A program made the translations under genes and the position numbers. Shown one piece after another: positions 6,829-49,843 of a stretch of 64,000 nt of DNA. Source of the stretch: a phage. The stretch lies in assembly GCA_009015555.1 (NCBI GenBank), contig GCA_009015555.1_3613.1; one strand, 5' to 3'. Each line of letters opens with the position of its first letter. The stretch's first letter is position 1. The notes under the pieces are model-generated. The model searched no databases, was not told the origin of the DNA, and saw only the letters and a list, made by a program, of their open reading frames with translations.

Positions 6829-7184
6829 GAGGATGCCTTAAACCCGGCGTTCCAGCCGAAGTCGTAATCAGTTTTGGGATCACCGTTCGCGCCCTTGTAG
6901 CCGCCCGGCGGGCACTCACCCTCAAAGTGCTTCAGTGCGTCCACATACCCGATGTACCAGTCCTTGGGCTTGTCCTCTTTCGAGTACCAAGATTCGCGGA
7001 ATACGAACTCTCTCCACAGGTCTTGGATGACGGCGACGTGCTCCCGCTGGCAGCGGCTATACAGGTTGTTCCTGCCGTTGTACAGCATGTCAAAGACACG
7101 CTGCTCCAGCGCTGCCTCTTCGTCACTGTTCGGGATAATCGGATTGTACCCGGCATACGGGCTTCGGTCTTCGGTATTTTCCAC
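6825..7184 (-). CDS. hypothetical protein (119 aa)
   Basis: Track ORF; 4-nt overlap with downstream ORF. Confidence 0.55.
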   Translation of the reverse strand: MENTEDRSPYAGYNPIIPNSDEEAALEQRVFDMLYNGRNNLYSRCQREHVAVIQDLWREFVFRESWYSKEDKPKDWYIGYVDALKHFEGECPPGGYKGANGDPKTDYDFGWNAGFKASS

Positions 7185-7217
7185 AGAAACTCCTTAGTTA
7201 TCAACAGGTTCGCCACT

Positions 7218-7502
7218 TCAGGCAGGGTACTGATGGGACTCGACAGGCTCCATGACTACCACCAATTGTTGGCCCACACCGCTTATGGTACGGTAGCGCA
7301 CGGAGCGCTCCGGCAGGGGAGGGCGGTTCTGTTCCAGTTGGTGGACCAGTTGGTAGATTTCCTCTTCCGTTGCCGGGCGGCATTCCATCCGGTATCCCAT
7401 GTTGGGAACGAGCGCGGAGGCCATAACCTCTGCCACGATGTGCTCCGGCACGATGGCGGCTACCATGCCGTCCCGGTCTACGATTGCATACGGAACACCC
7501 AT
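7218..7502 (-). CDS. hypothetical protein (94 aa)
   Basis: Track ORF. Confidence 0.5.
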   Translation of the reverse strand: MGVPYAIVDRDGMVAAIVPEHIVAEVMASALVPNMGYRMECRPATEEEIYQLVHQLEQNRPPLPERSVRYRTISGVGQQLVVVMEPVESHQYPA

Positions 7503-7503
7503 A

Positions 7504-7659
7504 CTAACCTCTCTTCAGCCATTGATCACGATTTTCCCAGATGCGTTCTGCGGCTTGTTCAGCCCAGCGCCTGTCCAGGTAACGCTCGAAGTAATACCCC
7601 GCCACCCCTGCGGCGATGATCAGCAGGAACCCACCGACGATTACGATGCCGGGAGTCAT
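7504..7659 (-). CDS. small membrane protein (51 aa, MTPGIVIVGGFLLIIAAGVAGYYFERY...)
   Basis: ATG overlaps stop of upstream ORF (ATGA); stop abuts next start; single TM helix. Confidence 0.35.
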   Translation of the reverse strand: MTPGIVIVGGFLLIIAAGVAGYYFERYLDRRWAEQAAERIWENRDQWLKRG

Positions 7660-7850
7660 GCGTCCACCAAACGGCGTCCAAACGCCGCTATGTCGTCTTC
7701 ATTTGCCAAACGGATAGTCGTAGACACCAGCAGGAATCTGTCCCAGTAGCGGGCCACTGAGCGGGCCATAACGATGTTATGCACCAAGGCCAACGGGTTC
7801 CCGTTGATGTCCTCGATAATGTGCGGGGCGTTCATTTCTTCAATAGTCAT
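7656..7850 (-). CDS. hypothetical protein (64 aa)
   Basis: Track ORF. Confidence 0.45.
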   Translation of the reverse strand: MTIEEMNAPHIIEDINGNPLALVHNIVMARSVARYWDRFLLVSTTIRLANEDDIAAFGRRLVDA

Positions 7851-8064
7851 CGTACCAATCTCCTTGCAGTTCCGCCAGCCGGGCGGTGTCGGATTTAATT
7901 CGGCGTTGCAGAGTACAGATTTCCCGGATGCGGGCCTCTTCAGGCGTTTCTATCGGGAACTCATGCACCAACCCTGTCGAGGACAGGCGCAGTTCTGTAC
8001 GGTGCCCGTTAGGGTACTGGATTATACGGACGCCCTGGTCCCACAAATCACGGTTCTTGCTCAT
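7840..8064 (-). CDS. hypothetical protein (start uncertain; track ORF extends to 8172)
   Basis: Track ORF; N-terminal 36 codons are Cys-rich low-complexity, internal ATG chosen. Confidence 0.35.
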   Translation of the reverse strand: MSKNRDLWDQGVRIIQYPNGHRTELRLSSTGLVHEFPIETPEEARIREICTLQRRIKSDTARLAELQGDWYDDY

Positions 8065-8289
8065 AGACCCATCCAGACCGCAATGGCACAAGGGGCGAAT
8101 AGCAGGGCTACAATGGCCCATGACACATATGCGTACCATGCAGGCCACAAAAGATAATCGCAGTTCTCCCATTCAGTGTTAGGGTTGTTGATCATTTGCC
8201 CTCCTCTCAGTGACTACCGTGCCCCAGGCACAGTTCCCCGTACAGGAATACCGCGCCAGCAACGCAGGCCATGAACAAACAAAAGCCCA

Positions 8290-8472
8290 TCATTCCAGAA
8301 TACCTCGCTTCACGCCTTCACGGCACAGTTCCACAACCACCAGGGCAGCGGAGCTATCCTTGCCGAGGCACAGGGCCATCTTACGCATCAGTGGCAGCGT
8401 GGACAGGATAACAGAGTCCTCCAGGCGGCTGATAGTCTCACGAATTTGTTCAATAGGTACTCGCTTTTCCAT
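8290..8472 (-). CDS. hypothetical protein (60 aa; start at internal ATG preceded by GAGGAG)
   Basis: Track ORF 8290..8502; RBS lies inside the first 10 codons. Confidence 0.4.
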   Translation of the reverse strand: MEKRVPIEQIRETISRLEDSVILSTLPLMRKMALCLGKDSSAALVVVELCREGVKRGILE

Positions 8473-8573
8473 AGTCTTCTCCTCTTCAGTTGATAAGGTC
8501 AATATACACCCATATGTTTACGCTGTAAACATGTTTCGGGGCATATGTCGAAAAAAGTTCATTCCATAAACAT

Positions 8574-8598
8574 GAAAACCGCCCGGATGGGCGGTTGC
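8574..8598 (-). terminator. rho-independent terminator
   Basis: Hairpin ACCGCCC-ATCC-GGGCGGT then U-run on minus strand. Confidence 0.45.
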
Positions 8599-8601
8599 GT
8601 T

Positions 8602-8814
8602 TTATTTGCGGAAGATTTGTACCGGGGTCGGCACGTAATGACTCTGCGGGTTCAGGGGGTGACGGTAGCAATCGAAATCCTCCGGGTTGTCGTTAGACTT
8701 CAGGATCACTTCACGAACCAGCGGCAGGCTGGTAAACAAACCCCAGTCCACATCGGTCTGTCCCATCTCTCCACGCATACTTACGTGGAATAGTTGGTAA
8801 ACGTATGCTTTCAT
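8602..8814 (-). CDS. hypothetical protein (70 aa)
   Basis: Track ORF. Confidence 0.5.
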   Translation of the reverse strand: MKAYVYQLFHVSMRGEMGQTDVDWGLFTSLPLVREVILKSNDNPEDFDCYRHPLNPQSHYVPTPVQIFRK

Positions 8815-8815
8815 C

Positions 8816-9286
8816 TCACTCTCCGTATTTTGCTTTCAGGCGGGCCAACTGGGCACGTTCCTCAGCCTCACGACGTTCAGCCGCCTGCTGCTCTGCTTTC
8901 TCCGCACGAAGTCGTTGCGCCTCCCGGTGATCAACCAGACGGGCATCATACTTACGCTTGGCGAGGATCTCTGCATCTTCCAGCATCAACTGACGTTCAG
9001 CCGAGTATTTCTCATACCCCTCGTCGGAGATTTCGTCAACCGCATAAGATGTACCGAAGTACCCGTTGATGCCCAAAGTGATGTCGGCCCCGGCAGTGAA
9101 CTCGTAATCCTTGTTCAGGCTACGATCCTGGGCCACAGTGTCCAGATAGATGGCGTGGGCCAGCAACTCAATAGCCTGTTCACGATCCTGAGTTGACTGA
9201 ATCGTCATGTCACTGTCAGTGCGGCCTTCACAGTAGCCGCCACGGTAGACGGCATCGTTTTCACGGTAAGAAATAATTGTGTACAT
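8816..9286 (-). CDS. hypothetical protein with charged coiled-coil C-terminus (start at ATG with RBS AGGGG)
   Basis: Track ORF 8816..9307; C-terminal RLRAEKAEQQAAERREAEERAQLARLKAKYGE. Confidence 0.55.
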   Translation of the reverse strand: MYTIISYRENDAVYRGGYCEGRTDSDMTIQSTQDREQAIELLAHAIYLDTVAQDRSLNKDYEFTAGADITLGINGYFGTSYAVDEISDEGYEKYSAERQLMLEDAEILAKRKYDARLVDHREAQRLRAEKAEQQAAERREAEERAQLARLKAKYGE

Positions 9287-9489
9287 TAGAACCCCTGTTT
9301 TGTCCAAGGTAGTGGAATACGTAACTGCCCGATTGTAAACTCCCTGCCAGGATACTCAGCAGCCAAAACCGTCAGGTTGAGTGCAGCAGCCTGCATGGAT
9401 TTATAAATGTGGAAGTGTCCGTCGATACAAACAATTCCGTCATTTCCTTTCTGCTTTATCGCAAAAGCATCATGGTAACCGCCAGCCAT
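9286..9489 (-). CDS. hypothetical protein
   Basis: Track ORF 9286..9522; internal ATG with RBS GGGGGA chosen. Confidence 0.45.
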   Translation of the reverse strand: MAGGYHDAFAIKQKGNDGIVCIDGHFHIYKSMQAAALNLTVLAAEYPGREFTIGQLRIPLPWTKQGF

Positions 9490-9490
9490 A

Positions 9491-9766
9491 TCATCCCCCA
9501 CAATATTTGTTAACTGGTTCACCGTCGATGTCTAAATCGGTGATTACGTGCTTAGGTCCAGTATAGTCCTCTGCCAGTTTCTTTGCAACCCTTTTTGCTT
9601 CTTCCAAGGTTTCAAAATCCTTGATGTCGGGGTCGCCGTGGGAGTAATGCTGCTGGACATACTGCCAGAAGGGCCACCAGAAGCCACGATTGTACTTCAC
9701 CCGGTAATACTCAACCACACGCCCGTTGGCGTAGGTCTTCACATTTTTCTCGATAAGAATCTTCAT
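9491..9766 (-). CDS. hypothetical protein (91 aa)
   Basis: Track ORF. Confidence 0.5.
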   Translation of the reverse strand: MKILIEKNVKTYANGRVVEYYRVKYNRGFWWPFWQYVQQHYSHGDPDIKDFETLEEAKRVAKKLAEDYTGPKHVITDLDIDGEPVNKYCGG

Positions 9767-10122
9767 TCAAACATCCCCTCCATATCGTTCTCGTAGATGT
9801 GATCCCGGATAGCCTCTGCGGTAGCTTTGATGCTGTCCTTGTGGGCATGGATAAGAGTCTTGAACATGTCCACCTTGCCCGGCAGACCAGCAAGCTGCGC
9901 CTTGTTGGCTGCGGCCCTAAAAACACCCATGCAGTGCATGTCATACCCCCAGGGTGTATACAGCCGGAGGAGTTCGGGGAACTCGTCCTTGATCATGTCC
10001 TCAAAATTGTAATATTTCGACTCCCAATACCCGAACATCATCAAATTACCGATATTCCGGCGGAGGGTTTCGTTAGTCTTTGCCATTTCAAGCAACAATT
10101 CAATTGCAGATTTTTCGATCAT
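9763..10122 (-). CDS. hypothetical protein (start at ATG with RBS GGAGG)
   Basis: Track ORF 9763..10140. Confidence 0.5.
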   Translation of the reverse strand: MIEKSAIELLLEMAKTNETLRRNIGNLMMFGYWESKYYNFEDMIKDEFPELLRLYTPWGYDMHCMGVFRAAANKAQLAGLPGKVDMFKTLIHAHKDSIKATAEAIRDHIYENDMEGMFE

Positions 10123-10245
10123 TTTGCCTCCTAAGTGCAATTATTTTGCGGTTTTGTGCAGAAAAGTGCCGGAATTTTGACTTTTACGTGCAAAAACGGC
10201 ACATTTTTACCTGATTTGTGTAAAATACATGAAAACTGTCAAAAA

Positions 10246-10473
10246 TCAACTCTTTTTGATGAATTGGTATCCCGGCGCTTTCAAAAAGGCGATTTGTTTT
10301 TGTACCTGGTCCAGCAAGAAAGATGACCACTCAGGGTAAACTGTTTCGAAGAAAGCCATCTCTTCCTTGTCATACAGGAAGGAATCGCTCAATTGGTGAA
10401 CAAAATCTATCACCTCTTCAGGGCAAAATACTGCCACAGTACCCTCTTCAAGCTCCAATTCAAGTATTTTCAT
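10246..10473 (-). CDS. short member of paralogous family (motif EEMAFFETVYPEW)
   Basis: Track ORF; shares C-terminal module with ORFs 14538-16834. Confidence 0.5.
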   Translation of the reverse strand: MKILELELEEGTVAVFCPEEVIDFVHQLSDSFLYDKEEMAFFETVYPEWSSFLLDQVQKQIAFLKAPGYQFIKKS

Positions 10474-10724
10474 ATGGCTACGAACCCATCCTCGTTCATC
10501 AGGACGTGGTTCGGTGCCCAGAAGTTGTGCCGGGACTCAAGCCACAGGTAGAATCGACGCTTACTTGACAGCGGATGCGGCTCTGTCTCGTAGGAAACGA
10601 GGGCCGTGCGGCCCTTATTCTTCCCACGGAGGATTCGTACACGCTGATCCTTTTTCCACTGGGATGGCACCCGTGGCGAATCGTAACACTTAGGCAGACA
10701 TTCCATGATATGGCCCCTTTCCAC
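10470..10724 (-). CDS. hypothetical protein (84 aa)
   Basis: Track ORF; ATGA overlap. Confidence 0.45.
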   Translation of the reverse strand: MERGHIMECLPKCYDSPRVPSQWKKDQRVRILRGKNKGRTALVSYETEPHPLSSKRRFYLWLESRHNFWAPNHVLMNEDGFVAI

Positions 10725-11205
10725 AGAATTTTTCCCAAAGTGCAGAGTCTATCCCGTGCAAGCCGGGCAGCAACTCCACCACCTGAGTCGTTATGCCCGG
10801 GTACAGAAACTCCAGCATCTCCAGTTCTTCGTTCTGGATGTCACGACAATCCAAGAAGAAGTCTGTCATCTTCACCGGGGATTGCCATACCTTTCCGACA
10901 CGACGCTTCAGGAACACATCCCCATCAGGCATCGCCATCCAAGAGATCCGGTCCAGCTTTCCGGTTGTGGAAATACTGAAGTGTCTCGGAGTGGAGGTGA
11001 CTGTCCCACCAAGGTATGGACCAATATCGAAACGAAACTTAATGGCAGGTTTGCCGACATTCTGAACCACACGATTGTCCTTGCGGTAGCCGCCATTTCC
11101 TGTAAAGATCAGGTTCCCGACGTATTTACGCCGAGTTAGATCTCGCCATGTCCACTCTTTAAACAGTTTGTGCAGGGTGGTCTTAGTCATCCGTGGAATC
11201 ATCAT
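10690..11205 (-). CDS. hypothetical protein (start at MM with RBS GGAGG)
   Basis: Track ORF 10690..11313. Confidence 0.45.
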   Translation of the reverse strand: MMIPRMTKTTLHKLFKEWTWRDLTRRKYVGNLIFTGNGGYRKDNRVVQNVGKPAIKFRFDIGPYLGGTVTSTPRHFSISTTGKLDRISWMAMPDGDVFLKRRVGKVWQSPVKMTDFFLDCRDIQNEELEMLEFLYPGITTQVVELLPGLHGIDSALWEKFCGKGPYHGMSA

Positions 11206-11413
11206 TTTCCTCCGGCAGGATCTCGAATTTTGCAACACCCAGTACCACCACGTGACCCAGAGACAGGACACCTGTCCACGGAGAGCCGTCACGCTTGGGC
11301 CGGGTCCCTTCAACGTCGCAGAAGCCGTTTTTAAGCTCCGAAGCAGTGAAGATCTGCCCCTTTGGAAACACTTTGTTGAAGTCGGTAATCACGTTCGTAC
11401 ATTTCAGCTTCAC
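11183..11413 (-). CDS. hypothetical protein (76 aa)
   Basis: Track ORF; long overlap with neighbour lowers confidence. Confidence 0.3.
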   Translation of the reverse strand: MKLKCTNVITDFNKVFPKGQIFTASELKNGFCDVEGTRPKRDGSPWTGVLSLGHVVVLGVAKFEILPEENDDSTDD

Positions 11414-11681
11414 GATTCATCCCCTCGTATTCAATAGCCACGGCTTTTTGCCACTCTTCTGCGTTTGGTTCCAGTGCCTGAGCCACAAGGCAGGCTCTGG
11501 TCCTCAGGTCTTCAGAAAACTTCCCTGTAGCAACAGTCTCACAACTGATGGCTGTGACCTCTGCGTTGAGTTCCTTACTCACGAAACCTTTGTAATACAT
11601 ATCCCGGGCCTGAAGAACAATGGCCTCCCACAGGTGCCAGTGCATATCGTCCACGTGTATCATATAACTATGGTCTCCCAC
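11331..11681 (-). CDS. hypothetical protein (116 aa)
   Basis: Track ORF. Confidence 0.45.
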   Translation of the reverse strand: MGDHSYMIHVDDMHWHLWEAIVLQARDMYYKGFVSKELNAEVTAISCETVATGKFSEDLRTRACLVAQALEPNAEEWQKAVAIEYEGMNREAEMYERDYRLQQSVSKGADLHCFGA

Positions 11682-11884
11682 TTGAAAAATTTACCAAACG
11701 GCCCATCAACCTCAACCTCATAACTGGCCTCCAAGCTCGTTCCTACCTCCCGGTAAGCATGGATACGGATATCTACCCTATACCTCTCCATGCCGCAGGG
11801 GAATCTGAACTTAATCTCCCTTTTAATCAGATCCGTTATCCCACCGCACTCCGCGACGGGTTTTCTCCACGGCGTTGTCTTCAT
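11660..11884 (-). CDS. hypothetical protein (74 aa)
   Basis: Track ORF. Confidence 0.45.
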   Translation of the reverse strand: MKTTPWRKPVAECGGITDLIKREIKFRFPCGMERYRVDIRIHAYREVGTSLEASYEVEVDGPFGKFFKWETIVI

Positions 11885-11934
11885 AAGTCACCTCCAGGGC
11901 CAGTATACACGAACATCATCGGATTGCAAGCAAT

Positions 11935-11962
11935 AAAAAACCGCCCGAAGGCGGTTGTTTTT
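11935..11962 (-). terminator. rho-independent terminator (hairpin usable in both directions)
   Basis: AAAAAACCGCCCGAAGGCGGTTGTTTTT. Confidence 0.5.
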
Positions 11963-12073
11963 AAAGAGGGGCGATGTCCGACTCAGGAACTTCCTGAACA
12001 ACAGGCCGACCACCGATCTTCACCTCGACGTACCAGTTTTCGGTGTCAGCAACCGGAGCGAGAGTTTTGCCCA

Positions 12074-12580
12074 TCAGACCTTCAAATGGGCCGGAGATGA
12101 ATCGGATTTGTTGATATTCGCTAAATGACATTTATCTTCCTCGTTAATAAACAAAGACATATCTGTCTTCAGGTCGTATTCACGACGCCAAAAGACAGCC
12201 ATAGTTTCGACGATTTGGTTCCCGTACATTGTACGGATGAAGCCAATATCGCCATATGTCAACTCCTTCCCTACAGGCAAGGCGTCGTAGAAGTGGCGCG
12301 GCACCGGAGACCAAAACTCAATACCCTTCCAGAAGAACTGGGCTTTTCTTTCGGTCCGAGGGTCATAGGCATACTTATCCCACGCATCCTTCCCTGGCTC
12401 TCCCGGGGAACCAGCCATACCCATAGGCCCCATAGGGCCAGGGTGGTTCTTTATTTCCGCAGCAGCGATGCCCTTTATGTGGGACCAGATATCTCCGCAG
12501 TCCATATCATACCCGGCGACACGGATAGCAGCCTGCAAGGCACCAATCAAGTCAGTTGTTCTTTTAAGCTCCTGCTCCAC
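12074..12580 (-). CDS. collagen-like repeat protein (GPMGPMGMAGSPGEPG), paralog family member
   Basis: Track ORF; Gly-X-Y tract; FWKGIEF motif shared with ORF 16328. Confidence 0.55.
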   Translation of the reverse strand: MEQELKRTTDLIGALQAAIRVAGYDMDCGDIWSHIKGIAAAEIKNHPGPMGPMGMAGSPGEPGKDAWDKYAYDPRTERKAQFFWKGIEFWSPVPRHFYDALPVGKELTYGDIGFIRTMYGNQIVETMAVFWRREYDLKTDMSLFINEEDKCHLANINKSDSSPAHLKV

Positions 12581-12785
12581 TCTCCACCCCTATCCATACC
12601 AAGACCTTGCAGAAGATGTAGTAATACAGGGGAACAGCCCCCAGTATGTACCAGAATACCCACTGACTGGACCAACCCTTTACCCAATACGGGACGATGA
12701 CCTTCCTTACGATCAGGATCAGACCACCCAGCGGTACGATAATACCAAAGAACCAGAGTGCAGCAAGAATCAGGAAATCAATCAT
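12564..12785 (-). CDS. small membrane protein (73 aa, 2 TM)
   Basis: Track ORF; hydrophobic. Confidence 0.5.
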   Translation of the reverse strand: MIDFLILAALWFFGIIVPLGGLILIVRKVIVPYWVKGWSSQWVFWYILGAVPLYYYIFCKVLVWIGVESGAGA

Positions 12786-13120
12786 TTGACCCCCTTTACG
12801 CCAGTAATATTTTTAATTTCCGCCTTTACCGATGCAGCTTGGGATTTTTCCACAGTTACGATAAGGACCTCGGTAGTTTGTATTTTGAGCCAACGGCGAT
12901 AGAAAGCCTCCAGAGAAGTATCACGGGCGGCAAGTTGGAAGCCTTCGGCTTCAAAATACACATCCCCGGCCTGTACGTCAACCACGGCGTCATCTGCTGG
13001 GTTGTCATACTCCTCTTGCTCAACACCGTCAAATAGGATCAGGGTGTCGTCATGCCAACGACTGCCCCAGAACTCCTCGTCATTGTAGAATTGTTTCCAA
13101 AGGGCACCTTTTACCTTCAT
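12782..13120 (-). CDS. hypothetical protein (start at ATG with RBS AGGAG)
   Basis: Track ORF 12782..13198. Confidence 0.45.
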   Translation of the reverse strand: MKVKGALWKQFYNDEEFWGSRWHDDTLILFDGVEQEEYDNPADDAVVDVQAGDVYFEAEGFQLAARDTSLEAFYRRWLKIQTTEVLIVTVEKSQAASVKAEIKNITGVKGVK

Positions 13121-13255
13121 TTGTATTCTCCTGTAAAGTTTTAAACGGGAATGCCCGTCAGGACGCACCAGATCGATTCTGAGGCGTTTTCTCGCCAAGG
13201 ATGATAAATCACCTTACCTCACCTCTAAAACGCTTACAGCGCGTTACAGGGCGTT

Positions 13256-13465
13256 TTAAGGAACCTTGGTGCAACTCACATTTGGACTACCCTCCATAAG
13301 ACGACAGATCATCGTCTTATCTGATGTCTTCGTGATGACGTAATCCGGGCAGGCGATGATAGTGGCACCACCGCCGTGGTCATGCACGGTACACTTCTTC
13401 AGGTCTTCCTCGGCACTGGCCCCAAAGGCCAAGAGTGCCAGTAAAATTAACGACGCTCTTCCCAC
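13256..13465 (-). CDS. small secreted protein (signal peptide, 4 Cys)
   Basis: Track ORF; N-terminal LILLALLAFGASA. Confidence 0.45.
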   Translation of the reverse strand: MGRASLILLALLAFGASAEEDLKKCTVHDHGGGATIIACPDYVITKTSDKTMICRLMEGSPNVSCTKVP

Positions 13466-13743
13466 TGGCGGTACTCCTCTTCCAGACCCTCAAGGGTCGC
13501 ATTAGCCATAAGCGGCTGGCCCTCCACAGGGTCGATGATATACAGCGTCCCGGTAACATTGTCCACCTGATCCATCATCTGCATGATGTCCGGACGCTTG
13601 AACACGTCATACGGCAGGCCGGGGAAGGCTGTCTGCAACATCATCTTGCAGTTCTGGGCAAATCCGCAGTTTGAGCCTTGGAAGGACATGAACCCCGGCG
13701 TAACCACCATTAGAGACACAACACCAAAACGAGATCTGCTCAT
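13447..13743 (-). CDS. hypothetical protein (98 aa)
   Basis: Track ORF. Confidence 0.5.
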   Translation of the reverse strand: MSRSRFGVVSLMVVTPGFMSFQGSNCGFAQNCKMMLQTAFPGLPYDVFKRPDIMQMMDQVDNVTGTLYIIDPVEGQPLMANATLEGLEEEYRQWEERR

Positions 13744-13744
13744 A

Positions 13745-14008
13745 TCAGTTCAACCTGTTGATTTCTTTAGCTTCGACCACTTCCAGATTTTTGTAGTTCA
13801 CGATCTGGTAGCTCCCCAAGTAGATGTCAGTCTCAAGGATCACCCGGCGGGCTTCCTCCAACGACAGTGCCACACACAGGAAGTCGTTAAACCCGCCCTG
13901 CGGGTAGTATTTTTCCGATGCGAACACCAGAAACAGTCCGGTTGCCGCCGGAGGCTCAGACATCGCCGTAACGGCTTGAGCGGTAACTTCTTTGTTCATC
14001 TGTAACAT
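13745..14008 (-). CDS. hypothetical protein (87 aa)
   Basis: Track ORF. Confidence 0.5.
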   Translation of the reverse strand: MLQMNKEVTAQAVTAMSEPPAATGLFLVFASEKYYPQGGFNDFLCVALSLEEARRVILETDIYLGSYQIVNYKNLEVVEAKEINRLN

Positions 14009-14019
14009 ATTGATCTCCT

Positions 14020-14310
14020 TTACCAGTCCAGTTTGTCAGCGCGGTGGCAGATTGCCAGTCGTGCAGCGCCGAGTTCGTCGCCTTTGCCCAGCAGTATATT
14101 ATGGTCCCGCTGGAACTTCAACTCTTTTATCACATATTCGAGATGCGGTTCGAGTAAACTTACCAGCACCTCGGCCTTTTCCGGATGCAGGGTCTCAAAG
14201 AGATCCCAGCCTGCATCGAAGTTCTCTTCATCGTCGGTGAAGAACTGCTCGCGTAGTTCCGGCGACATGATGTGGAACAAAAGGTGAGAGTATCGGGTAT
14301 TTTTGCTCAT
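14020..14310 (-). CDS. hypothetical protein (96 aa)
   Basis: Track ORF. Confidence 0.5.
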   Translation of the reverse strand: MSKNTRYSHLLFHIMSPELREQFFTDDEENFDAGWDLFETLHPEKAEVLVSLLEPHLEYVIKELKFQRDHNILLGKGDELGAARLAICHRADKLDW

Positions 14311-14483
14311 CAGCTACGACTCTTATGCAGAAGGCCGATGATGGCAGCACCCAAGACGCCGAAGCCCAGACCAATACCGAAGGCCCCTGTCAGCCCAGCG
14401 TTCGCCAGTACCGCTGCACAACCGCTAATCATGGACATGATGCCGATGATAAATGCTTTTTCGATGGTAGATACCTTTTTCAT
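14310..14483 (-). CDS. small glycine-zipper lipoprotein (57 aa; lipobox ISGC)
   Basis: ATG with RBS GAGGAGAG; stop overlaps next start; not in track (<60 aa). Confidence 0.45.
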   Translation of the reverse strand: MKKVSTIEKAFIIGIMSMISGCAAVLANAGLTGAFGIGLGFGVLGAAIIGLLHKSRS

Positions 14484-14537
14484 TCTTCTCTCCTCTGTTG
14501 TTTGATAGGACCCATCATACAGGGTCCTGTGTCAATG

Positions 14538-14996
14538 TCAATCGTTTTCGAAAGCATTTAATGCCTGAAGCTCTTTCCAGGCGGCAATCCATGCCTGCTT
14601 TATCTTGGCGTACTCTTTAGGATGAGCAACTTCCAGTAATCGAAGCTCGTCCCGAGTTACGTGCCTGTCGTCCTCGAAGAACTCCATAGCCTCATCAGAG
14701 AGGTAAGCCGTAAAGACGATCTCTTTGAACTTTATCGTCCTGTTCCTCGACGTCGGAGGATCTACGATGACCTGGGTTCCAGTTGTTGTGATAGTCGGGG
14801 CCGGGGTATTCATGACCTCCCTCATAATCCTTTCCCACTCCCGGGCCTTGATATCGGACGGGGAGGGGGTCCAAGGTTGGTGAATGTTCGGCGGGATGTT
14901 GCCATCCCCAATTCTCCACGGCCCGCCAATCCCAGTTGTCTCATTACCCATCAATGAAGAATTGATGTGTTCCTTCAGGCTCTTATGTTCACTCAT
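14538..14996 (-). CDS. paralog family member (Gly-rich N-terminal part; C-terminal ...KQAWIAAWKEL)
   Basis: Track ORF; shared motifs with neighbours. Confidence 0.55.
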   Translation of the reverse strand: MSEHKSLKEHINSSLMGNETTGIGGPWRIGDGNIPPNIHQPWTPSPSDIKAREWERIMREVMNTPAPTITTTGTQVIVDPPTSRNRTIKFKEIVFTAYLSDEAMEFFEDDRHVTRDELRLLEVAHPKEYAKIKQAWIAAWKELQALNAFEND

Positions 14997-15435
14997 TTGG
15001 CATCATCTCCCCTAAATCAAAGGCTCGGTACGCCTGGCGTTTGTTCCACTCTTCCGCCCAAGCATCCCGGATCGATTTCCACTCGGACTCATCCACCACC
15101 TTGATAAAAGAAAGTTCGTCCCCGTTCAATTGGGTAGCATCATCAATCATGGCAAAGGTTTCTGGTTTCAAGCGGACCTTGAATGCAAGCCCGGCATACG
15201 ATAAAACATAAAGCTCTGTGCAGATACCCATAGGCCCAGGTGTCCCGCACACCCCGGACACCCCCATATCCCCTCTTGGTCCCAACATCCCATTTACCCC
15301 CATCACAACCCCGGTAGTTGCGTCGTAACGCAGTTCGTTCAACTGCGCCGCCCTCAGTTCATCATTAGCGCTTCGCTTTTGGCCCATTGAATTTCTCCAG
15401 CAACAGTTTATCGGCTTCGTCCAAAGCCCCAGCAA
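14989..15435 (-). CDS. paralog family member with collagen-like tract (GVNGMLGPRGDMGVSGVCGTPGPMG)
   Basis: Track ORF; WAEEW motif; start uncertain. Confidence 0.5.
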   Translation of the reverse strand: MLGLWTKPINCCWRNSMGQKRSANDELRAAQLNELRYDATTGVVMGVNGMLGPRGDMGVSGVCGTPGPMGICTELYVLSYAGLAFKVRLKPETFAMIDDATQLNGDELSFIKVVDESEWKSIRDAWAEEWNKRQAYRAFDLGEMMPNE

Positions 15436-15838
15436 AGAGAGGCACCATTGGGGAAAGATCTGCGTACAGCATCTCGAACATCGCCACCTCTCCTTCGTCC
15501 ACGTTGTGCGTGTCTAAGAAGATTTCTTCAATAGACAGACGTTCGGTATCTCCTCGCCCAAAGGCATGATAAACCAAACGATCACCCTTCTCAGGGCAGG
15601 TTCTCCACTGAAGAAGGCCACTCATGCTCTTAGTCCACAACCGCAGGTCCCCGTTCTTCATCTCGTGACGCATGGTAAACTCCCGGACGGTATTCGGCCC
15701 GGTGGGGACTTCGATAGTCAAACCTCGGAACTTACCTTCCAACTTGGTCACTACTTGGCGTCGAACAGGATCATCCATAACGGCCTTCCAACTCCAATCC
15801 CGAGCCAGCCTCTCAATTACATCTTTGATTTCACTCAT
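15365..15838 (-). CDS. paralog family member (motif EVAMFEMLYADL)
   Basis: Track ORF. Confidence 0.55.
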   Translation of the reverse strand: MSEIKDVIERLARDWSWKAVMDDPVRRQVVTKLEGKFRGLTIEVPTGPNTVREFTMRHEMKNGDLRLWTKSMSGLLQWRTCPEKGDRLVYHAFGRGDTERLSIEEIFLDTHNVDEGEVAMFEMLYADLSPMVPLFAGALDEADKLLLEKFNGPKAKR

Positions 15839-16359
15839 TATTTATCCTTCGTTGGGAAAAATACAGACAGGGTATTGGAACCCGCCGCCTTATCGAGTTT
15901 TCGGGTGACGCCGAAGAACTCCCGATTCATATCTATGAGCATTTGCTCGTCGCCGTAAAGCATCTGGAACATATCCAACTCTTCAAATGTCGGACGCCAA
16001 GGGTCGTCAAACATCTCCGATAAATGAGTCTTTACACCGTCACACTCGTAAGTGCAGGAGTTTTCAGTGACTACCAATCTGGCCCGGAGACCTTTTATGC
16101 CAATGCCGGGGATCTCTATGCTCGCCAGATCTCCTGTCTCAGGGTCGATATTCGCCTTTACCATCTTGTCCATCTCCCAAGAAGAATCCATCTTGGTTTT
16201 GAGGTAGAACGAGGCCCGGCTGTCTATATCTATCCCTCTCTCCACCCGATGCTCAAGGAACTTGAAGAAAACTTGGTGTTTCAGCCAGTGGTTCCACCCG
16301 ATCCAGCGAGCACCCTGCCCAAATACCTCACGGGTAATTTCTTCTTGGCTTTTTCTCAT
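15838..16359 (-). CDS. paralog family member (motif ELDMFQMLYGDE)
   Basis: Track ORF. Confidence 0.55.
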   Translation of the reverse strand: MRKSQEEITREVFGQGARWIGWNHWLKHQVFFKFLEHRVERGIDIDSRASFYLKTKMDSSWEMDKMVKANIDPETGDLASIEIPGIGIKGLRARLVVTENSCTYECDGVKTHLSEMFDDPWRPTFEELDMFQMLYGDEQMLIDMNREFFGVTRKLDKAAGSNTLSVFFPTKDK

Positions 16360-16834
16360 AGTAGTCTAACTCCCACTCGTCAAATTCTTCTTTGGCCCTT
16401 TCGATTGCCCACTTTTCCGCCCACTGCTCCCTAAACGCTTTAAATTCATCCGGATAAGTCATCTGGAAGAATGCCATATCCTCCTTGGTGAGGGCATACT
16501 GGTTAAAGAAGAGAGCCTTTATGTCCTCTTCTGAATATAATGTAACCGAAATTCCCTTCCAGATCAACTTGGATTCGATAATTTCTTTCGGCGGTTCGTA
16601 TGATCCGCTGTGACCCATCGGTCCTCCCGGCGCACCTAAGTTTGCCCAACTCCCGTGCATCCACATATACAGAACACCCCCGATGATATAGGTGTCGCCG
16701 TGGTTTGCCGTCAAGGGTAGATTGGTCACTGATTGCAATGACCCTTGTATCACCATATTTTGTGTCGCAGCAGGGAAAAGGCCGGGAGACGTTGAATACG
16801 GGTTAGATACATTACCAGTGTTAAAATTTGCCAT
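16328..16834 (-). CDS. paralog family member (GAPGGPMGHSGS; EDMAFFQMTYPDEFKAFREQWAEKW)
   Basis: Track ORF. Confidence 0.55.
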   Translation of the reverse strand: MANFNTGNVSNPYSTSPGLFPAATQNMVIQGSLQSVTNLPLTANHGDTYIIGGVLYMWMHGSWANLGAPGGPMGHSGSYEPPKEIIESKLIWKGISVTLYSEEDIKALFFNQYALTKEDMAFFQMTYPDEFKAFREQWAEKWAIERAKEEFDEWELDYYEKKPRRNYP

Positions 16835-16881
16835 GCACCCTCCAAAAGAAAAGGCCGACCGTCTTTCGACGATCGACCCGA

Positions 16882-17530: not shown

Positions 17531-18124
17531 TTAGTCAAAAGTCGTTTCACATTTATGCTGGAAACGTTCCAGTGCGATCGAGGTCCTTGGCTCCGCCAAT
17601 CCGGTCCCGTAAACATACGATTTTCCGGTCATGGTTTTACGCACACCGTATGATCCGAGTTCCAGATCTTCGTACATGACGTCGAACCCGTCCTCTGTCT
17701 CGATCACCTCTGTAGGCAGTGCATAAAACTCCCTCAGAAACTTCTGCATCTTCCCGGCGATCCACAGTGCATCCGTCCGGGTGTAGAAGTTGCTGTCATC
17801 ACTCAGCTTCATGAGTTCCAGTTTCAGGAACACAGGTAAGTGAGTTTCGTCAAGGATCGGCTCGTCACGGTAGCAAGGGGTCAACGCCATCCAACGCCCT
17901 GGTTTAAGTTTGCCCTCTTTCTCCAACTGGAGAAAAGATTGCTCCGCCGAGGCAACAACAGTATCCGGATATTTACCGTACAGGCGGGAATCATGTACGC
18001 CCGCCGGGCAGGTGTGAGACATAACATCCGGGTCTACAAGGGCCGGGACCTTTTTGGTCTCAAACCAAAGCCCCCACCAGTTAATCGCGTCACGTACCAG
18101 TGCCAAGTTCATAGGATATTTCAT
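17531..18124 (-). CDS. hypothetical protein with class-II aminoacyl-tRNA-synthetase-like motifs (tentative)
   Basis: Track ORF; motif-2-like CYRDE..HLPVF and motif-3-like GTGLAEPR; function unverified. Confidence 0.5.
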   Translation of the reverse strand: MKYPMNLALVRDAINWWGLWFETKKVPALVDPDVMSHTCPAGVHDSRLYGKYPDTVVASAEQSFLQLEKEGKLKPGRWMALTPCYRDEPILDETHLPVFLKLELMKLSDDSNFYTRTDALWIAGKMQKFLREFYALPTEVIETEDGFDVMYEDLELGSYGVRKTMTGKSYVYGTGLAEPRTSIALERFQHKCETTFD

Positions 18125-18395: not shown

Positions 18396-18896
18396 CTATG
18401 GGCAGCAGCGCGGCCCTCCACCACAATAATATTGCCAGCTTCTACCCCCGTGGTAGTTTACTGGCCCTGCTCTCTCACACCCTGACCCGCTGCACCCCTC
18501 TTCCATAATGTGGTAGTCGATGGAACATGAGTGTGGATGGTCCAGCATATCGAGGATCTCAAAACAAAGTCCTCTCAACCATATAAAGTGATTATGCTCG
18601 CATACCTCCAACAAGTCAATCTCTTGTTTTGTCGGTTTTGCCGGATTCTCAAAATACGGGTATGATTTCCATCCAGTAATGACATGGATAACCTTACCGT
18701 CCTTTACCTCATAATCCACGCTCTCAACCAGCCTGATCGAAACCTCTTGGATTACCTCTGTGCAACTTGATCCGTAATCAGGATTTGCCTTCCCTGTGCG
18801 AATGTTTTCCTCTATCCAAGAGATAACCGGGCTTTTGGCCCGGTGTGTATCGACAGACAGGAGATGCGCCATTCTCCCGTTAGTCATTGTGACCAT
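18396..18896 (-). CDS. Cys/His-rich hypothetical protein
   Basis: Track ORF; CEHNH, HPHSC, CSGSGC, CGGGPRCC clusters. Confidence 0.5.
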   Translation of the reverse strand: MVTMTNGRMAHLLSVDTHRAKSPVISWIEENIRTGKANPDYGSSCTEVIQEVSIRLVESVDYEVKDGKVIHVITGWKSYPYFENPAKPTKQEIDLLEVCEHNHFIWLRGLCFEILDMLDHPHSCSIDYHIMEEGCSGSGCERAGPVNYHGGRSWQYYCGGGPRCCP

Positions 18897-49814: not shown

Positions 49815-49843
49815 ATTCTATGATCCAATGATCCTCTTGTCAA
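49815..49843 (-). promoter_or_regulatory. sigma70-like promoter driving the leftward gene block (TTGACA-17-TAGAAT on minus strand)
   Basis: Plus-strand ATTCTA and TGTCAA read as -10/-35 on minus strand with 17-nt spacer. Confidence 0.5.

Follow-up and report, generated by a model that had tools for sequence, protein, structure and literature searches.

Small proteins of probable stalk-and-knob form with a shared C-terminal module in the early/middle arm of Certrevirus-like phages

Why would a large lytic phage keep a row of small genes for collagen-like proteins away from its structural genes? The locus that raises this question occupies positions 10,246 to 16,834 of a 64,000-nucleotide (nt) stretch of phage DNA (contig GCA_009015555.1_3613.1 of assembly GCA_009015555.1), hereafter the window. 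A sequence-only reading of the window had listed seven open reading frames (ORFs) there as a tandem paralogous family with Gly-X-Y (GXY) tracts and a conserved C-terminal module, and had proposed that the proteins either target variable host factors and defense systems or are structural fiber components. We find that they belong to a superfamily specific to the lineage of Certrevirus-like phages, whose proteins are small, acidic and soluble and which, with nine to ten members in the window, is larger than listed. The reading that we favor, if tentatively, is that they are dispensable accessory proteins consisting of a stalk and a knob, probably trimeric and most likely kept out of the virion, which would serve as multivalent binders inside the infected cell.

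The window comes from a Certrevirus genome (CR3/CR8/PBES 02-like; Vequintavirinae) and is 97% identical across 7 kb to the Cronobacter phages PBES 02, CR8 and CR3. ORFs are named by their lower coordinate in the window (16328, for instance, stands for 16328-16834 on the minus strand), and 16328, 14989 and 14538 are referred to as the core trio.

The members and their relationship

All seven listed ORFs were found on the minus strand at the coordinates given, and 11 related phage genomes conserve them as annotated genes. In BLASTP comparisons 16328 matched 14989 (37 bits) and 14989 matched 14538 (40 bits), and all remaining family pairs stayed at or below 23 bits. From such scores it could be argued that the core trio alone forms a family, and that the helix 'EE-h-x-h-F-E-h-h-Y-P-E' of the other ORFs is a convergent or chance acidic-aromatic helix, the more so as the ORFs had been picked on that very motif. 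Our results make this argument improbable, as follows.

Orthologue profiles of 27 consecutive minus-strand genes were built from the 11 related genomes, and all 351 pairs were put through hhalign. Within the core trio the probability was ~97% (P ~1e-10). Further pairs followed at 95% (10690 and 15365), 91% (12074 and 14989), 87% (15365 and 16328), 80% (10690 and 14538), 77% (15365 and 15838), 73% (12074 and 16328), 72% (15838 and 16328) and 71% (10246 and 16328), and both matches of 12074 fall outside its GXY tract. Weaker links connected 18396 to 15838 and 10690 (50-63%) and 14020 to 10246 (69%), and 14020 less strongly to others. These values should be interpreted with some caution, since several pairs reach only 70-77% with profiles that are low in diversity (effective number of sequences 1.5-2.4), and this speaks for the smaller family. 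However, the ~20 top-ranked of the 351 pairs all fall inside one set of ten genes, whereas the unrelated gene pairs that served as controls gave a best P of ~0.01, the level expected for 351 comparisons.

Three further lines of evidence point in the same direction. First, a hidden Markov model (HMM) of the trio C-termini was run on the full set of 1020 stop-to-stop ORFs in the window, a scan unbiased by the original choice, and ranked 10246 (E = 0.014), 15838, 13447, 15365 and then 10690 next after the trio, with marginal scores. The ORF 13447-13743 was rejected as a member (HMM E = 0.24, a weak match, and an hhalign P of only ~0.01). Secondly, ORFs of divergent phages recovered from metagenomes matched across subfamilies in searches of databases of a few hundred ORFs: a 12074-type ORF matched the 14989 profile at 3e-8, a 15365-type ORF matched 16328 at 1e-4, a 15838-type ORF matched the 15365/10690 profile (positions 58-146) at 3e-4, and an 18396-type orthologue (phage L013) matched the core-module profile at 4e-4. 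Thirdly, cross-matches in PHROG tie 15365 to phrog_13666 and 10690 to phrog_12686, and independent AlphaFold2 (AF2) models of 16328 and 15365 agree in how the secondary-structure elements succeed one another around the motif. Profile-profile comparison, neighboring-gene controls and divergent-phage intermediates thus agree that the tandem family with its shared C-terminal module is real. The original list of seven was correct as far as it went; it had missed 10690, 18396 and, as a weak case, 14020.

The common signature is a 'WKGI..' beta-strand followed by 'h-x-E-h-F-x-D...h-T/D-x-E/D-E/D-h-x-h-F-E/Q-h-h-Y-P-D/E', to which the core trio adds a 'WAExW' helix. The alignment of the full-length paralogues 15365 and 10690 has 15 invariant columns. 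All members are acidic (isoelectric point 4.4-5.7) and hydrophilic. At the DNA level the paralogues have only remnants of 26-33 nt in common, beneath the two most conserved motifs; the duplications are therefore old, and recent duplication or gene conversion is ruled out.

A conserved module behind variable N-terminal parts

In the core members the shared module is ~70-85 amino acids (aa) long. Proteins of the 16328 group share 64-81% of the module with the window protein but only 10-48% of the N-terminal 84 residues (amino-acid identity), so that the diversification suspected in the sequence-only reading is that of fast-changing N-termini on a conserved C-terminus. The AF2 model of 16328 predicts an N-terminal beta domain (aa 28-67) with a predicted local distance difference test score (pLDDT) of ~85, a disordered linker, and the module (pLDDT ~90) as a beta-hairpin (86-101) and helices (105-108, 117-126 and 128-160). 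For 15365 a single globular domain is predicted (pLDDT 85.5, predicted template modeling score 0.81), the C-terminal half of which repeats the element order of the 16328 module.

At its N-terminus, 16328 has a single copy of a ~50-aa beta-unit that the virion fiber gp008 of CR8 contains in at least six tandem copies (33-37% identity, best E ~1e-6). Across 185 phage records, residues 27-80 also match internal segments of proteins annotated as tail fiber, spike or baseplate, and they match PHROG tail-fiber families at 1e-7 to 3e-4. The likeness to the phage's own virion fibers gp008 and gp011 thus lies in the beta-unit 'LP..G..GD.Y.I.....Y.W.G..W...G' and in the short GXY stretch that comes after it. 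In contrast to the family proteins, gp008 is a virion protein of 1093 aa with at least six units and four collagen stretches and without the C-terminal module, which was not found anywhere in the CR8 structural arm. At ~110 bits, gp008 and gp011 both exceed the threshold of Pfam Collagen, and CB7_10, a collagen-domain fiber, was detected in CB7 virions. In the CR8 record (L012) gp008 lies at 7063-10344 and shows the repeats of beta-unit plus short GXY together with a sub-threshold Fibritin_C match (aa 941-974); gp011, at 11393-12763, is a second collagen-repeat fiber.

Of the three collagen-like tracts quoted in the sequence-only reading, those of 14989 and 12074 stand. Their Gly-X-Y periodicity is kept in every orthologue (6-9 triplets in 14989, 5-7 in 12074), and because it is kept while residues and repeat number change, the sequences indicate that these tracts are selected triple-helix segments. 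They miss the gathering threshold of Pfam Collagen (PF01391, 27.2 bits) at 16.5 bits for 14989 and 15.5 bits for 12074 because they are too short. The third tract, 'GAPGGPMGHSGS' of 16328, does not stand: its three triplets lie in the predicted disordered linker and are not kept as GXY in more distant orthologues.

The C-terminal place of the module holds throughout the family. In a word-indexed search of 5.8 billion proteins, orthologues of the window paralogues were the only matches, and an exhaustive HMMER search over 1.84 billion representatives with a module-only profile gave 68 clusters. Three of these (P0108, P0132 and P0138) were rejected as homologues, because their scores add up from many ~3-bit matches to repeats of the cadherin-like or Big_3 kind. 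The other 65 representatives are 87-177 aa long and without exception carry the module at the extreme C-terminus. In front of it 19 representatives have a GXY tract of 4-9 triplets and 11 the beta-unit (two of these have both), and the other 37 have different leaders. The GXY tract ends at most six residues from the first strand of the module in 18 of the 19. Four divergent members were looked up in their genomic context: two occupy the syntenic slot, behind the genes for RlaP, the synthetase-like protein and the membrane protein, the third lies inside the same ordered array of paralogues, and the contig of the fourth is too short to judge.

Searches of general libraries pointed to no known family. 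Scans of up to ten members against Pfam, NCBIfam and PADLOC gave nothing above threshold. Profile searches of the PDB with the module and with the 15365/10690 group gave nothing below E = 0.4, and no significant relative, by structure or by sequence, was found in the PDB. Foldseek searches of BFVD returned family members, and also fiber and collagen proteins that match the N-terminal unit only. The T4 fibritin foldon (Fibritin_C, PF07921) had no match in family members, and gp008 reached only 19.4 bits against a cut-off of 21. PHROG holds the individual paralogues as separate families without functional annotation (phrog_13666, 19834, 21419, 30227, 29710, 12686, 12307, 12009, 16086, 25810, 12113 and 15823), whereas the C-terminal module and the fiber-type N-termini unite them here. 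Their union into one superfamily with a defined module was not found in the libraries or literature searched.

Genomic position and gene turnover

The array is encoded on the minus strand, where it forms the far end of a long leftward arm. Other genes of this arm encode DNA ligase, exonucleases, thymidylate synthase, ribonucleotide reductase, ClpP, PhoH, endolysin, tRNA nucleotidyltransferase and the RlaP nucleotidyltransferase, and one small gene is tRNA-synthetase-like. Genes for morphogenesis (terminase through tail fibers) occupy the other arm and the other strand; in the CR8 record the fiber genes lie at 7-33 kb and the array at ~103-105 kb on the opposite strand. The published Certrevirus early-promoter consensus with fixed spacing gave few sites, and with a relaxed scan strong sigma-70-like promoters were found on the minus strand at 49843, 45963, 45353, 44581, 36495, 30414, 20712, 18619 and 14541. 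The corresponding region of CB7 has been assigned to early/middle transcription by the host polymerase (PMC7344957). Position, promoters and that assignment together agree with the early region suggested in the sequence-only reading: the family sits in the early/middle arm read by host RNA polymerase, downstream of replication and nucleotide-metabolism genes.

The five genes from 16834 to 14538 overlap successively by 32, 1, 23 and 8 nt, and the GGAGGG ribosome-binding site of 16328 comes directly after the upstream hairpin (Table 1). They would form one tight operon, probably translationally coupled, which host RNA polymerase may read from the upstream early/middle promoters through the hairpin. 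For 14989 the likeliest start codon is the ATG at 15387, which gives the 132-aa form of the public records, and not the TTG at 15435.

The number and integrity of the genes differ among the 12 genomes compared, in line with the copy-number variation that the sequence-only reading had thought worth checking. The 16328-type gene is present twice in CR9 and reduced to fragments in CB7, which also lacks 14538; in PcCB7V the 14538-type gene is split; phiTE and DU_PP_I have lost some members. In PBES 02 a 1-nt deletion (A4 for A5) fuses the 16328-type and 15838-type genes into one coding sequence of 331 aa. The A5 run corresponds to 16350-16354 of the window (minus strand), inside the 32-nt overlap 16328-16359 (PBES 02 counterpart at ~9417-9449 of L001). 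A programmed frameshift at this overlap was rejected, since -1 slippage on A-AAA-AAG would not lead into a downstream frame that is +1, and the other genomes keep two genes; we read the fusion as a homopolymer error or as specific to the strain. The 100-nt junction of the two genes (16300-16400) is ~94-96% identical even in CR9 (L005 9909-10009), where the flanking proteins are only 44% and 62% identical. This may reflect a dual-coding constraint or a recombination joint for swaps of N-terminal modules.

Table 1. Family members and transcription signals in the window (members are named by their lower coordinate)
Coordinates	Strand	Feature	Details and evidence
16328..16834	-	core member 1, 168 aa	beta-unit ~aa 27-70 (nt 16625-16756), linker aa 71-82, module aa 83-168 (nt 16328-16588)
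15838..16359	-	remote member, 173 aa; 32-nt overlap with upstream gene	'F-D-D...T-F-EEL-D-M-F-Q-M-L-Y' motif; hhalign 72-77% to 16328 and 15365
15365..15838	-	globular member, 157 aa	predicted N-terminal helices with W-x-W, five-stranded sheet, motif helices; AF2, hhalign
14989..15387	-	core member 2, 132 aa	Gly-X-Y x8-9 (nt 15220-15300), fused directly to module (nt 14989-15231)
14538..14996	-	core member 3, 152 aa	Gly/Thr/Pro-rich N-terminal part; module aa 81-152 (nt 14538-14756)
12074..12580	-	divergent member, 168 aa	Gly-X-Y x5-6 (nt 12389-12442), then variant module 'FFWKGIEF...LTYGDIGFIRTMYG'
10690..11202	-	additional member, 170 aa	full-length paralogue of 15365
10246..10473	-	minimal member, 75 aa	little beyond 'EEMAFFETVYPEW' motif region; HMM E = 0.014, hhalign 71% to 16328
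18396..18896	-	probable distant member, 166 aa; outside the interval first described	hhalign 50-63%; L013 orthologue 4e-4
14020..14310	-	possible distant member, 96 aa; weakest case	'FDAGWDLFETLHPEKAE'; hhalign 69% to 10246
16852..16879	-	terminator-like GC-rich hairpin with T-run	between membrane-protein gene and array; terminator annotated at same site in phiTE
14514..14541	-	near-consensus sigma-70 promoter TTGACA-16-TATGAT	new transcription unit right after five-gene array

Several observations concern the surroundings. The gene 12074 is named 'collagen-like protein' by PGAP. The 12074 transcription unit probably ends at a perfect bidirectional GC-rich hairpin (11939-11956) that has T-runs on either strand and lies immediately downstream of the small ORF 11961-12131. 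In KaOmega, F1M1E and POP15, one or two genes for RCC1-like beta-propeller proteins of ~390 aa stand beside the 12074-type gene (L004 5895-7082; L010 5898-7049 and 7064-8227; L007 7056-8219). Among the three of these from KaOmega and F1M1E that were scanned, two match phrog_4219 at 1e-34 and all three stay below the Pfam threshold; the window has no such counterpart near 11900-12070. A divergent metagenomic relative (L017 4496-5179) has a 227-aa Gly_rich_2 protein (PF21722, 33 bits) after its 12074-type gene. Next to the array, 17531-18124 on the minus strand is a 197-aa gene, called a histidyl- or a seryl-tRNA synthetase depending on the relative and far too short for a full synthetase, which is conserved and adjoins the array in all relatives. 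Proteins identical to those of the window are filed as Escherichia coli proteins (KAB3178357-68) on a contig of 149,946 bp, evidently a complete Certrevirus-like phage genome within a bacterial assembly.

Possible roles of the proteins

According to the model that we propose, the core trio and the divergent 12074 would be 'mini-fibers', in which a short stalk of a single element (one copy of the beta-unit, a collagen helix of 5-9 triplets or a Gly/Thr/Pro-rich segment) is fused directly to an alpha/beta knob of ~70-85 aa. The knob would most likely act as a trimerization and registration domain and offer a constant binding surface, with the N-terminal part free to vary. In 15365, 10690, 15838, 10246 and 18396 the same motif core appears to be set inside a larger or smaller globular domain. 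Made in the infected cell, the proteins could then bind a host or phage partner there in multivalent fashion.

Known proteins offer partial precedents for a trimeric knob. The collagen-like fiber proteins EPclA-D (PfN-PCoil-Col-PfC) are encoded by prophages of E. coli O157:H7, and in EPclA the PfC domain is directly fused to the collagen segment and experimentally trimeric (Ghosh et al. 2012, PMC3368898). Like EPclA-D, the family is phage-encoded and places a small C-terminal domain (~64-85 aa) after a Gly-X-Y tract. Unlike it, the family proteins are 3-4 times smaller, have 5-9 triplets instead of ~37 and no N-terminal virion-attachment domain, lie in an early/middle tandem array and were not detected in virions; nor did Pfam searches of the seven listed ORFs at E<=1 find PfN (PF08400), PfC (PF06820) or Pf2 (PF03406). 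The T4 fibritin foldon and the NC1-type domains of collagens resemble the knob in being small, C-terminal and provided with a beta-hairpin at the end of the stalk, a geometry suited to nucleation of a triple helix from the C-terminus; for the family, the trimeric stalk is what we infer.

The proposal that the proteins are structural fiber components of the virion is not borne out. None of the family members CB7_157, 158, 164, 168 and 169 is among the 26 proteins identified by tandem mass spectrometry (MS/MS) in CB7 virions, which all come from gene region 1 except CB7_55, and none from region 4, which holds the family. A cryo-electron microscopy and MS survey of phiTE, its supplementary MS table not covered, makes no mention of gp113, gp119 or gp123-125. 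The suggestion of a fiber nature thus holds for the architecture, with a beta-unit from the gp008 repeat in 16328 and true short collagen tracts in 14989 and 12074, but not for a place in the virion.

The proteins could still belong to the virion in minor or sub-stoichiometric amounts, for instance as short whiskers or as fibrils that decorate it, attached by the conserved knob and displaying the variable N-terminal stalks. Their building blocks are of fiber type and common to the virion fibers gp008 and gp011; collagen-like tracts in phages usually occur in virion fibers (PMC3368898); the annotators of PcCB7V named two members 'tail fiber protein'; and UniRef calls the PBES 02 fusion 'Virion structural protein'. 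These names, however, come without evidence in the records, and the fusion's own GenBank and RefSeq entries say hypothetical. Moreover, the genes stand among early/middle genes, opposite in strand and arm to those for morphogenesis, and ordinary fibers combine a constant N-terminus with a variable C-terminus, the reverse of what is seen here. With the proteome also against it, we regard a role in the virion as unlikely.

Somewhat less probable still is that the proteins help to assemble the fibers, as soluble trimeric templates of one fiber repeat each that would nucleate or chaperone the folding of gp008 and gp011 and not be incorporated. It fits this idea that 16328 contains exactly one gp008 repeat unit, that 14989 and 12074 have GXY tracts like those of gp008 and gp011, and that a C-terminal knob beside a collagen tract is the classic nucleation geometry. 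However, the genes are not adjacent to the fiber genes and their position suggests expression ahead of the late genes; Pfam, PHROG and NCBIfam gave no match to tail-fiber assembly families (Tfa/gp38/gp57A type); most representatives have neither fiber element; and CB7 and PcCB7V still make fibers although members are dispensable or decayed in them.

An accessory role inside the infected cell is the best-supported of these possibilities, ranked ahead of virion decoration and fiber assembly because of genomic position, gene turnover and proteomics. Several points besides the UniRef name weigh against it. The AF2 models are of monomers only, and expression timing is deduced from position and promoter-like sites. 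Among the 65 representatives, 37 have neither a GXY tract nor the beta-unit and carry other leaders, mostly Gly/Thr/Pro-rich. In addition, CB7 has no intact core trio, so its proteome covers only members of the 12074, 15365, 15838, 10690 and 10246 types.

That the partners of these proteins are host factors or defense systems is a reasonable guess from context. A PADLOC defense-system scan of ten proteins gave no match, and a Tad2-like match (PF11195, Thoeris anti-defense) in 14538 (aa 38-55) was rejected as noise, at 14.2 bits against a cut-off of 25 over 18 residues. The fiber-derived N-termini, the least expected feature of the family, leave a small chance that the mini-fibers are early-made soluble mimics of the phage's own fiber repeats (beta-unit and collagen triple helix) on a common trimeric knob, acting as decoys or blockers for a host factor that recognizes such repeats. 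That factor might for example be a protease, an immune sensor or a receptor set free when the cell lyses, and rapid N-terminal turnover would track host variation; if true, this would be anti-defense or anti-inactivation by mimicry of a structural protein.

In conclusion, the data at present establish a solid new family, not a new mechanism. About a dozen PHROG families without annotation merge into one superfamily, whose module is apparently new and has no solved structural relative. If the knob proves to be an autonomous trimerization domain, it could serve as a compact tag that registers short collagen helices. A large lytic phage keeps a conserved slot, outside its structural module, for small stalk-plus-knob proteins made from pieces of its own tail fibers. 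If these proteins act on host factors, the slot would be a compact and fast-evolving accessory locus, and a candidate determinant of host range or defense escape in phages used for biocontrol of Cronobacter and Pectobacterium.

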